24,000 bases of DNA, from NCBI GenBank assembly GCA_964558645.1, contig CAZLEV010000023.1, positions 2,609-26,608 on the forward strand, read 5' to 3'. Made by a program: the position numbers and the translations under genes. The first letter of the stretch is position 1. Every line of letters begins with the position of its first letter. The notes beneath the pieces are model-generated. The model saw only the letters and a program-made list of their open reading frames with translations, did no database searches and was not told the DNA's origin. The DNA comes from an uncultured archaeon. GTDB lineage: Archaea; Asgardarchaeota; Thorarchaeia; Thorarchaeales; Thorarchaeaceae. Shown one piece after another: positions 5,089-7,081 of the stretch.

Positions 5089-6309
5089 TCATCTGAAACC
5101 TAGCAGTTGAAGCAGATACTCATAGACCCGTTCGGATGCACCAGGCTTCTGGTACTCATTAATCAGCCGATTCACCTGTCTTCGTTGCTCAGCGTATTCA
5201 TCGGATTCCCACAATGCCTTCTCTATGGCTCTTTGAAATACGGTGAATGTGTACACCTTCTCCCCGGGACACCAGAAATCATAGTCTGGATAGCATAGAC
5301 TCTCTCTCTCAAGGAAGTCGTCCAAGTCATATGGAACGAAGATCATGGGTCGATCCAGTAGCATGAAGTCGCTTTGGATGGAGGAATAGTCATTGATGAG
5401 CAGGTCCACTTCAGGAAGAACTTCGGCTATGTCCGGTTGTAACGCGTAGGGGAGGTTCCGAATATGGTGTGTTTCCTTGACCTCTCCCCCGTCTCCTTCG
5501 TGGGAACGGATGAGCATGAGAATCCTCTTCCCCGCACACCATTCTTCTAGTGCATCTGTCGTGAAATCCTCAAAGGGAAAGAACCTGACAGTGCCTTCAG
5601 TTCTCCAAGTCGTTGCATATAATAGAACCTTGTCATATTCAGGCAGACTAGCATACAATGTGGGTATTTTCTCTTTCCACCTCGACTCATCCAAGAGATA
5701 ATCACACCTAGGATATCCTAAAGATAGGATTTGAGTTGGGTGAAGGGCGTGTGCATACGCTCTCATGTATGAGTCCAGACGTGAACATGTGAGAAAGGCA
5801 GTAGTGTACTGCATCCAATGCTCTGAGTCTTGGAGCATCTCTCTTGTGAACTTCTTCGAGGCATACCCATCTGCTTTGGGCCCGTGCCCATGCCAGAGAT
5901 GTATCACATACTTCCTCTTGGATGGCCGCAGGTTTCCCATGTCCCCCAAGCTGTTTGTCATGAGAATAGTCTTTGCTCTAAGAAAGAGGTGAACTGTACC
6001 CAATGATGGTCGTCGTATACACCTCTCGTACGGACTATCGGTATGATGATTCAAGAAGAAGTAGCACCGAAACGGATGACCTTCTCGATGCGCGATATAT
6101 TCGAATAGTGCCTTCGAGTTTCCGGACGGATACGACCCACCTCGCGAGCCGAAGATTAGAATCGTCGAGTCCTTTGGCCATATATAGTCTAGAAATTGGA
6201 TAATCCGTCGGAACCCTTTGGTGAGTATCTCTCTGAAGCGCATTCTCATTCTCTCCGTTTCTGAGGTGTCCTTTGGTTGGTCAGGCTGACTCGCATCTTG
6301 TTCCAGCAT
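5089..6309 (-). CDS. CDP-glycerol/CDP-polyol phosphotransferase, TagB/TagF family (Glyphos_transf).
   Basis: '[10 protein letters not shown]', 'LMLIRSHEG' and '[32 protein letters not shown]...[27 protein letters not shown]' match the conserved C-terminal core of teichoic-acid glycerophosphotransferases ('lyaPTwR', 'LITDYSSv.fDf..l.kPiif...D...Y', 'pG'). Confidence 0.8.
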   Translation of the reverse strand: [406 protein letters not shown]

Positions 6310-6325
6310 TATAAGGTTTCCAAAG

Positions 6326-7081
6326 TCAGGCCCAATAGCCCTCTTCGAGGAGCTCAGCGGCCCAATGCAGATCTGTGGGGGTATCGATGTCCTTCCATAT
6401 AGCCCCCTCGACTGGCTTTACATAGAATCCCCGCTCCCTACTCGACTGCTTGTGGACGTATTCGCTGAGTGATCTCTTGTCTTTTGGGAGGTCAGCTATG
6501 ATTTCAAAAGCATCTTGAGTCAGTTTGAAGATGCCCATGTCAATCATGTTCCACTGCGAGATATTCTTTCCGATTTTGACTAGCCTATGATTCTTCTCAG
6601 AGAGGATCTTGGTTGCATCGGCCAGATCCAGATAGTCCGGAATGCCTTCATTTCGATATTGTGCGCAGACATAGGGCGTGTTGACTGTGTCAGTAACGAC
6701 ACATTTTCGGTAGGTTGCAGGAGAGAAGAGGTGGTCTGACATCTGGAGGATAAACTCCTCATTAGACAGGAGGCCATCGCACGCTAGCAATGTGGCCGCA
6801 TTTCCATCTTGCCAATCCTCTGATTTGACCACTACCACATTATCATAGAGATGGCCTTGGCTCTCAACATAGTCAACCATAGTTTCATAGTGGATGCCTA
6901 CGGATATGAAGAGCCTGAAGTCCCCTCTTAGACAGACATCAATCGTCGAAACAATGTGATCGAGAATGGTCTTGTTCTCCAGCTCCAATAGGGTCTTGGG
7001 AATTTCTTGGTGTATTTCTTCAAGTCTTATTCCCAGACCCCCTGCGACAATAACAATCTCTTCCATCAGCATCGACACCAT
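6326..7081 (-). CDS. Sugar/alcohol-phosphate nucleotidyltransferase of the IPCT/LicC type, probably a CTP:polyol-phosphate cytidylyltransferase.
   Basis: 'IVIVAGGLGIRL....PKTLLEL' is the NTP_transferase G-loop. 'FILQMSDHLFS', 'ATKILSEKNHRLVKIGKNISQWNMIDMGIFKLTQDAFE' and 'IWKDIDTPTDLHWA' parallel the archaeal inositol-1-phosphate cytidylyltransferase domain as I recall it ('FILTMGDHVYS', 'EATKI...V..IGK.L...D..DTGFFVL', 'LWMDVDTKEDV'). The true start could be an internal Met (MLMEE.. or MEE..). Confidence 0.75.
   Translation of the reverse strand: MVSMLMEEIVIVAGGLGIRLEEIHQEIPKTLLELENKTILDHIVSTIDVCLRGDFRLFISVGIHYETMVDYVESQGHLYDNVVVVKSEDWQDGNAATLLACDGLLSNEEFILQMSDHLFSPATYRKCVVTDTVNTPYVCAQYRNEGIPDYLDLADATKILSEKNHRLVKIGKNISQWNMIDMGIFKLTQDAFEIIADLPKDKRSLSEYVHKQSSRERGFYVKPVEGAIWKDIDTPTDLHWAAELLEEGYWA

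Follow-up and report, generated by a model that had tools for sequence, protein, structure and literature searches.

What would a transferase of the family known from bacterial teichoic acids do in an Asgard archaeon, and which activated alcohol would it use? This question is raised by two adjacent genes in the window (i.e., G000:C23:2609-26608, the whole stretch of 24,000 nucleotides that was analyzed). The window belongs to genome G000, which consists of 3.63 Mb in 37 contigs, has an estimated contamination of 6.3% and, like all the genomes concerned here, is a metagenome-assembled genome (MAG). The first gene (positions 5089..6309, minus strand) encodes P0001, a 406-amino acid (aa) protein predicted to be a TagF-family (Glyphos_transf, PF04464) cytidine diphosphate (CDP)-alcohol phosphotransferase with a single GT-B domain and the size of TagB/TarF. 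The second gene (6326..7081, minus strand) encodes P0002, a 251-aa protein that was recognized with PF00483 and NCBIfam as a stand-alone, COG1213-type cytidylyltransferase resembling inositol-1-phosphate cytidylyltransferase (IPCT). From the sequences and their surroundings, it is highly probable that the pair would serve CDP-alcohol phosphotransfer onto a lipid-linked glycan made by the neighboring glycosyltransferases, and there is about an even chance that the donor is CDP-inositol, i.e., that inositol phosphate is the group transferred.

The contig that carries the pair is, as judged from its sequence, archaeal and of a Thorarchaeota-type Asgard lineage, and not bacterial, an origin that the initial annotation had named as fatal to its reading. 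The closest homologues of P0001 (46-72% identity) and P0002 (48-59% identity) are found in metagenomes and in MAGs labelled Candidatus Thorarchaeota, the adjoining genes M1 and M2 are specific to the window's family, and the remaining genes of the window are ordinary archaeal housekeeping genes. Distribution was assessed in a phylum sample of 201 genomes, of which 44 (43 plus G000) belong to the window's family and 157 to other families. The Thorarchaeota loci compared were the window, L014/L015, L016 (cut by a contig end), L023, L024, L025, and L026 of G055, the last of which is the Candidatus Thorarchaeota MAG isolate A361 from the same family as G000. Characterized reference enzymes were compared through the PDB and family models only and hence lie outside both of the trees described below.

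The assignment of P0001 to the TagF family is supported by sequence, predicted fold and conserved residues. P0001 matched PF04464 with 182 bits (cut-off 22.1) over model positions 4-366 of 367, and its PDB matches were led by TarL (1e-17) and TagF (1e-11), followed by the capsule polymerase Cps3D. H140 aligns with TagF H444/TarL H300, the proposed catalytic base, and H270 aligns with position 584 of the TagF chain and with TarL H433, a second essential His (PMC10901376), and W139 aligns with the stacking Trp that precedes the catalytic His. Along with G141, G143, K145 and the DYSS block at 307-310, these three residues are invariant among 15 orthologues, so that the catalytic His pair, on whose presence in the 5089-6309 product the initial annotation had made its claim depend, is kept. 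Both motifs that had been quoted for this protein were also found, YATTWR at 231-236 and the second one, of 29 letters, at 303-331. The AlphaFold model built on the orthologue alignment (pLDDT 83.9) matched the C-terminal domain of TagF (3L7I) over its whole length in a Foldseek search (3e-20, TM 0.75), with TarL, Cps3D and Bcs3 next.

The architecture of P0001 is that of the smaller members of this family. The TarF model aligns end to end with P0001 (78 bits vs. a cut-off of 550), and the TarL model aligns only over its C-terminal part (84 bits vs. a cut-off of 1000). P0001 scored below the equivalog level of teichoic acid polymerases (NF041713 and relatives), and no extra N-terminal domain was found in its alignment or model; its N-terminus is predicted to form only a basic amphipathic helix (residues 17-43). 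Given that the polymerases of the TagF family bear an additional N-terminal domain (PMC10901376), the architecture of P0001 is TagB/TarF-like, i.e., that of a primase or short-chain enzyme, which suggests that glycan decoration or a short addition is likelier than a polymer of teichoic-acid length. The donor loop of the P0001 clade reads WHG(H/Q)-GP-K in most orthologues and WHGRPGLK in two. In characterized enzymes, the motif PL in this loop marks glycerol enzymes and GAF marks ribitol enzymes (PMC10901376), and neither was found in the P0001 orthologues. Relatives of P0001 with a TagD-like gene nearby have a P[LIM] loop in 11 of 13 cases, and the Thorarchaeota TagF clade has neither a nearby TagD nor a P[LIM] loop.

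P0002 (CYTIDYLYLTRANSFERASE) matched the Pfam NTP_transferase family PF00483 with 30 bits. Its top NCBIfam match was the IPCT half of the Thermococcales IPCT/DIPPS model NF041135 (92 bits; the equivalog cut-off of this bifunctional model, 580 bits, is out of reach for a stand-alone domain), followed by an archaeal GlmU-type model (58 bits). When a profile of 18 relatives was compared with the PDB, the IPCTs of Archaeoglobus fulgidus (2XME, 117.5 bits) and Thermotoga maritima (4JD0, 105.7 bits) scored far above PntC (56 bits), a sugar-1-phosphate enzyme (47 bits) and LicC (42 bits, over the N-terminal half of LicC only). The model of P0002 (pLDDT 92.5) has a TM of 0.82 to the T. maritima enzyme, to which R19, K29, and D116, all invariant in the P0002 alignment, can be aligned at its GKR, PK, and GD positions, respectively; these residues correspond to the R/K/D active-site triad of the latter (PMC12275187). 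The identity of P0002 to the solved IPCTs is 24-27%. P0002 is thus an IPCT-like cytidylyltransferase whose activity is predicted. The initial annotation had placed it in an IPCT/LicC group apart from TagD; the IPCT part of this placement stands, and the LicC part does not, since LicC matched over one half and with about one third of the score. Membership among the sugar-1-phosphate nucleotidyltransferases (NTases), which had been raised as a possible refutation, is contradicted by sequence, profile and fold, in all of which IPCT is the best match, and by the tree.

The NTase tree was built from 35 sequences with a careful search, and in it a branch with 100/98 support separates an IPCT-type group from the sugar-1-phosphate-like NTases. 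The IPCT-type group comprises the Thorarchaeota clade (100/100), a clade of bacteria labelled KSB1, Zixibacteria or Calditrichota (99/96), NTases from L011 and L071 of another Asgard family, the lone Asgard NTases of L066 and L067, and the N-terminal halves of the NTase-CDP-alcohol-phosphatidyltransferase fusions of L065 and L068. The NTase genes of L011, L071, and L067 lie directly beside genes for inositol-phosphate synthase, and those of L011 and L071 are beside TagF-like genes as well. The Thorarchaeota NTases are therefore bracketed by inositol-linked enzymes, given that relatives within this group are either synthase-adjacent (L011, L071, L067) or DIPPS-fused (L065, L068). The fusions of L065:2678-4078 (from G134, a member of the window's family) and L068 are 456-466 aa long and are built like the IPCT/DIPPS of hyperthermophiles. 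In L071 (G144:C2:258000-277000) and L004, an operon that encodes an IPCT-like NTase and two paralogues of inositol-phosphate synthase adjoins a gene for an 814-aa protein, in which two TagF domains follow each other in tandem, as well as a third TagF-like gene.

The bacterial members of the IPCT-type group are also paired with transferases, and coupling to TagF-family enzymes is thus habitual in this group. In all six that were looked up (loci that include L072:4880-10436 of a Calditrichota-labelled MAG, L073, L078, L079, and L080), the NTase gene follows a Glyphos_transf gene (355-373 aa) at a distance of 3-54 nt. Four of these six pairs are among genes for lipid A acyltransferases, heptosyltransferases, and O-antigen-ligase-like or MsbA-like proteins, and the other two (L079 and L080) are bare two-gene units. 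L072 contains the clade NTase, a true TagD and four TagF-like genes in one locus; the coexistence of TagD and the clade NTase implies two different donors. In L078, the gene for a D-2-hydroxyacid dehydrogenase (L078:7701-8720) overlaps the end of the NTase gene, a possible hint at a glycerate-type donor, as with CpgD of Caulobacter. The identity of the bacterial NTases to P0002 is 31-35%, and that of their TagF partners to P0001 is only ~20%.

The TagF tree (56 sequences) also recovers a monophyletic Thorarchaeota clade (99), to which a TagF-GT4 fusion from Nitrososphaeria is sister (93, not starred). Other Asgard TagF-like genes are scattered among bacterial sequences at three or more separate positions. 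This tree does not identify a donor lineage, since its sequences were collected with two peptide patterns. Transfer of the pair as a unit from bacteria was considered and rejected, given the ~20% identity of the TagF partners and the position of the NTase of the Nitrososphaeria sister in a different clade. The initial annotation had proposed that base composition be checked for signs of horizontal acquisition, and none was found: against 1723 genome open reading frames (ORFs), the two pair genes have GC z-scores of -0.9 and -1.05 and codon usage at the 52nd and 62nd percentiles, i.e., they are within about one standard deviation of the genome, and no foreign signature was seen in GC, GC3 or codon usage. 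Recent horizontal acquisition is thus rejected as well. Old transfers of TagF-like genes are likely, judging from the distribution of the Asgard sequences over several clades mixed with bacteria. The Nitrososphaeria fusion, the nearest relative of P0001 outside the Thorarchaeota clade, is an 805-aa protein with an NTase gene before it (L027:7115-10376, from a MAG), a layout that recalls bacterial capsule polymerases alternating sugar and polyol phosphate. In Ancylomarina euxinus, the gene directly after a TagF-like gene encodes a 602-aa protein in which an NTP_transferase domain is fused to a CobD-like threonine-phosphate decarboxylase/aminotransferase domain (L031:9210-11018), with TagD nearby, which suggests, from sequence, that a TagF-family enzyme may use a CDP-amino-alcohol donor.

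Which enzymes could supply the donor in G000 was examined at the genome level. Of the PF01467 family, G000 has three genes, which were assigned by score to RibL-like, NMNAT and PPAT proteins and leave no candidate for TagD; TarI/IspD was not found in G000 either, as its PF01128 match was below the cut-off. A search for further relatives of P0002 in this genome at E <= 1e-5 gave none. P0002 is thus the only visible donor maker in G000. The initial annotation had noted that the cluster lacks a dehydrogenase or reductase that forms a polyol phosphate, which proved correct, as no ribitol- or glycerol-phosphate-forming dehydrogenase was found in any of the seven loci. G000 does contain two genes for inositol-phosphate synthase, on contigs other than that of the window, and a synthase encoded elsewhere in the genome would explain why a precursor enzyme is missing from the cluster. 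It had been held that the donor could not be read from the sequence; gene context and phylogeny now favor inositol phosphate.

The following sequence of reactions would account for these observations. As suggested by its family, fold and conserved active-site residues, P0002 would condense CTP and a phospho-alcohol to a CDP-alcohol, the favored substrate being L-myo-inositol-1-phosphate from the synthases of the genome and the product CDP-inositol. In P0001, which would be associated with the membrane, H140, stacking on W139, would then abstract the proton from a hydroxyl of the lipid-linked glycan that the neighboring GT2 and GT4 enzymes assemble; this hydroxyl would attack the beta-phosphorus of the CDP-alcohol, with H270 helping CMP to leave, and the alcohol would be joined to the glycan via a phosphodiester. 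The decorated glycan would finally be exported and attached to a surface protein or lipid. Probably, one or a few units are added per glycan. The proposal of the initial annotation, that the pair makes and uses a CDP-polyol to modify a glycan, is supported in this generic form by fold, residues and context; the teichoic-acid-like polymer that it also envisaged is less likely.

More broadly, we tentatively propose, with somewhat less than an even chance of being right, that TagF-family and IPCT-type enzymes together form an unrecognized class of CDP-inositol-dependent inositol-phosphate transferases, which would act on surface glycans in Asgard archaea, where those of Thorarchaeota would be accompanied by the lineage-specific M1 and M2, and on lipopolysaccharide (LPS) cores in uncultured bacteria of the KSB1/Zixibacteria/Calditrichota type, and which would supply the type of enzyme responsible for inositol linked via phosphate to archaeal glycans. 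It should be noted that several points weigh against the reactions proposed for the pair and their inositol donor. The stem of the Thorarchaeota NTase clade is long, at 2.2 changes per column, and the node that joins this clade to the synthase-adjacent one has a support of only 92/82, so that the specificity of P0002 may have changed. No inositol-phosphate synthase or DIPPS is adjacent or fused to the NTase at the window locus or at any Thorarchaeota locus, and the NTase clade is known from sequences alone. The TagF partners of this clade do not form a set of orthologues, and no donor-loop motif was found to be shared among them (GP, PGL, GD, GI, and QN). Co-occurrence of synthase and NTase in the bacterial phylum of G201 gave no support, with synthase in 136 of 151 genomes overall (a tally that includes the unpublished genomes G291 and G348, on which no other result depends) and in 12 of the 15 with the NTase; because synthase is nearly universal, this test is uninformative. 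Neither a flippase nor an oligosaccharyltransferase nor an initiating transferase was found within the 24-kb window, and a TagGH-type exporter was not found there either. Finally, enzymes of the COG1213 type use inositol-1-phosphate, phosphocholine, phosphoglutamine and phosphoglycerate (PMC12275187) as well as aminoethylphosphonate (PDB 6PD1), and the substrate of P0002 is therefore not fixed by membership in this group.

Some of these points bear on which alcohol is transferred. Archaea make plenty of glycerol-1-phosphate, which counts in favor of a glycerol donor, and the pair could follow classical teichoic-acid chemistry, in which CDP-glycerol (from sn-glycerol-1-, 2- or 3-phosphate) or CDP-ribitol is made and glycerol or ribitol phosphate is added to the glycan. 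All characterized PF04464 enzymes use one of these two donors (PMC10901376), the donor loop is of a short, TagF-like length in most P0001 orthologues, which are publicly annotated as CDP-glycerol glycerophosphotransferases, and pneumococcal capsules provide a precedent of a dedicated CDP-2-glycerol pathway (gtp1-3) paired with a transferase, WchX (PMC1391919). We nevertheless consider classical chemistry unlikely, as the loop has neither PL nor GAF, P0002 is far closer to IPCTs than to the known glycerol- or ribitol-phosphate cytidylyltransferases, neither a TagD-type gene nor a PF01128 match above the cut-off was found, and the seven loci lack the corresponding dehydrogenases; in addition, clade relatives adjoin synthase genes, and the clade NTase of L072 coexists with a true TagD. 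The same mechanism with another donor of the COG1213 type, such as phosphocholine, phosphoethanolamine or aminopropanol phosphate, phosphoglycerate or a phosphonate, would be compatible with the substrate range of this group (PMC12275187), with PntC as the next-best structural match, with the decarboxylase fusion beside the TagF-like gene of Ancylomarina (L031), with the 2-hydroxyacid dehydrogenase after the clade NTase of L078, and with the JGI label of orthologues as 'choline kinase', which is the name of COG1213. Its probability is nonetheless low, in that the match to LicC (42 bits, N-terminal half only, vs. 117 for IPCT) is poor, no decarboxylase, phosphoenolpyruvate mutase or choline kinase was found in any Thorarchaeota locus, and the phylogenetic bracket indicates inositol.

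The other question is whether a glycan is the acceptor at all. A membrane lipid could take its place, e.g., in the synthesis of an inositol-phospholipid by a Kennedy-like route, as could a small molecule that yields a solute like di-myo-inositol phosphate. TagF-family enzymes work at the membrane surface (PMC10901376), the pairs of L079 and L080 stand without glycosyltransferases, and G000 has no IPCT-DIPPS-type fusion at the thresholds used, although its relatives do. In all seven Thorarchaeota loci, however, the pair is among glycosyltransferase genes, and in three of them it is beside a gene for UDP-N-acetylglucosamine (UDP-GlcNAc) 2-epimerase. This epimerase supplies the N-acetylmannosamine for the unit that is primed by bacterial TagB. 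The patchy, serotype-like distribution of the island also fits poorly with a core lipid or solute pathway, and we regard a non-glycan acceptor as rather improbable. Transfer of inositol phosphate to a glycan is the reading that we prefer.

The initial annotation had reported a Glyphos_transf ORF 16 nt downstream of an NTP_transferase ORF, and both ORFs (5089-6309 and 6326-7081, on the minus strand) and the gap between them were found. Alignments of orthologues place the probable start of P0001 at M21 or M23 (i.e., position 6249 or 6243) and that of P0002 at M6 (position 7066); the intergenic gap is therefore probably ~76-82 nt, and the corresponding NT-TagF gap in the orthologous locus L014 is 85 nt. 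Upstream of the pair and in the same direction is M1 (7163..7708, minus strand), an uncharacterized two-helix membrane protein with an ERNP-x-YVP module, for which scans of Pfam and NCBIfam gave no family match. It is preceded by M2 (7712..8953, minus strand), which is a tandem double copy of the membrane module of M1 and whose true start is probably near 8824, the orthologues being 348-360 aa long. M2, M1, NT, and TagF form a four-gene operon that converges with three glycosyltransferase genes on the plus strand: a GT4-like protein with only a weak N-terminal GT4 domain (2177..3103; kept in L014, L016, L023, L024, and L025), a GT4 glycosyltransferase (3152..4291; PF13692, PF00534, and PF13439; kept in L014, L016, L023, and L024) and a GT2 glycosyltransferase (4288..5073; PF00535; kept in L014, L023, and L024), the last of which is separated from the convergent TagF-like gene by 15 nt. 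A second GT2 gene (8852..9859, plus strand; PF00535, 24.6 bits) is divergent from M2, and its orthologues adjoin the module in L024, L025, and L074. About 10 kb from this island, at 16885-21050, a pyruvate kinase gene is divergent from a pair of genes for enolase and phosphoglycerate mutase (archaeal apgM type); these are core glycolysis genes, and no link to the TagF-NT pair was seen.

M2, M1, NT, and TagF occur together in all seven Thorarchaeota loci, and NT and TagF are adjacent in every one of them, even in G055, where the order is TagF-NT ... M2-M1. Within the family, the orthologues of TagF and of the NTase are each found in only G000 and G055 (2 of 44 genomes), which, like their constant adjacency, speaks for a functional coupling of the two, and M1/M2 are found in 17 of the 43 other family genomes as well as in G000 and in 1 of 157 genomes elsewhere in the phylum. 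M1 and M2 are therefore not partners specific to TagF, a possibility that was considered and rejected, as the pair is in 1 of the 43 genomes, plus G000. In G131, of the same genus, M2-M1 is followed by other genes in place of the pair. The M2-M1 module (7163-8953 in the window, and L074-L077) anchors a glycan island that is otherwise made up of different genes in different genomes of the family, and the housekeeping genes that flank the island in the window are not kept beside M2-M1 in other genomes. The patchy presence of the pair and the far commoner presence of M1/M2 identify the pair as an accessory cassette in this variable island, which may be comparable, by analogy, to the serotype-specific genes of bacterial polysaccharide loci. 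The GT2/GT4/GT4-like set is found in four loci and is different in L025 and G055, three Thorarchaeota loci add the 2-epimerase, and the G055 locus additionally contains genes for an asparagine-synthase-like amidotransferase and for a UDP-sugar dehydrogenase. In L025, a PIG-L-family deacetylase (de-N-acetylase) is encoded just upstream of M2 (L025:4618-5271). GlcNAc-inositol conjugates are the substrates of two well-known PIG-L family members, a link that is possibly, but not necessarily, of relevance to L025.

Asgard archaea are the closest prokaryotic relatives of eukaryotes, and to our knowledge nothing is known experimentally of their cell-surface glycans. The locus described here provides a concrete two-enzyme candidate for placing a phosphodiester-linked alcohol on an Asgard glycan. 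Should the donor be CDP-inositol, the substrates of the TagF family would extend past ribitol and glycerol. CDP-inositol would then have another role in biology next to the synthesis of di-myo-inositol phosphate, a heat-protective solute, and an enzyme type would be available for the inositol phosphate on the Thermococcus N-glycan. Should the donor instead carry glycerol phosphate, the locus would encode a transferase of an ordinary kind, already named by automatic annotation, and only its host would be unusual. The occurrence of the same NTase clade with TagF-like genes in bacterial LPS-core contexts suggests that the NT-TagF module may be widespread and overlooked. Annotations of TagF-like genes in Methanobrevibacter go back a long time (PMC5816558); we found no paper that links CDP-inositol to TagF-family enzymes or TagF-like genes to Asgard archaea, and none that names the transferase for the inositol phosphate of the Thermococcus kodakarensis N-glycan.

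Compared with known systems, P0001 is most similar to TagB/TarB, TarF, and TagF/TarL (3L7I and 8VA1), with which it shares the fold (TM 0.75), the W-H dyad, the second His, and the DYSS nucleotide-binding block. Its single-domain layout and size are those of TagB/TarF, and its basic helix fits with membrane association. Unlike in the wall teichoic acid enzymes, the loop of P0001 contains GP or PGL in place of PL or GAF, and its partner is IPCT-like instead of being TagD or TarI; in addition, the archaeal host has no peptidoglycan, and the acceptor thus cannot be the bacterial linkage unit. P0002 shares the R/K/D, MSDH, DATK, IGK, and D-x-G-x-F blocks with the IPCT/DIPPS of A. fulgidus (2XME/4MND) and the IMPCT of T. 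maritima (4JD0). In contrast to IPCT/DIPPS, it is neither fused nor adjacent to a DIPPS-type CDP-alcohol phosphatidyltransferase but has a TagF-family transferase as its partner within a glycan island, and we know of no indication that its lineage is hyperthermophilic, as the hosts of IPCT/DIPPS are.

A non-TagD donor pathway coupled to a transferase is also encoded in a variable polysaccharide locus of pneumococci, where WchX presumably belongs to PF04464 and Gtp2 presumably has the NTP_transferase fold. This gtp1-3/wchX system adds one phosphodiester-linked unit per repeat (PMC1391919); it differs from the pair described here in being bacterial, in its glycerol-2-phosphate donor, and in genes of its own for a reductase and a phosphotransferase, which the locus described here lacks. 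TagF-type phosphotransfer in glycan loci with glycosyltransferases, outside teichoic acids, is likewise known from the TagF-like capsule polymerases of Gram-negative pathogens (Cps3D, 8QOY; Bcs3, 8A0C; PMC5974469). These are multi-domain proteins of more than 1000 residues that use CDP-glycerol or CDP-ribitol, whereas P0001 is a stand-alone single domain; the Nitrososphaeria TagF-GT4 fusion of L027 resembles them more than P0001 does. The product predicted here has an archaeal counterpart in the phosphate-linked myo-inositol on the N-glycan of T. kodakarensis, as described in a review (PMC11407970, citing Hirao et al., 2023); according to this review, an inositol-phosphate glycan product of this kind exists in Archaea, in a different organism and on a different glycan.

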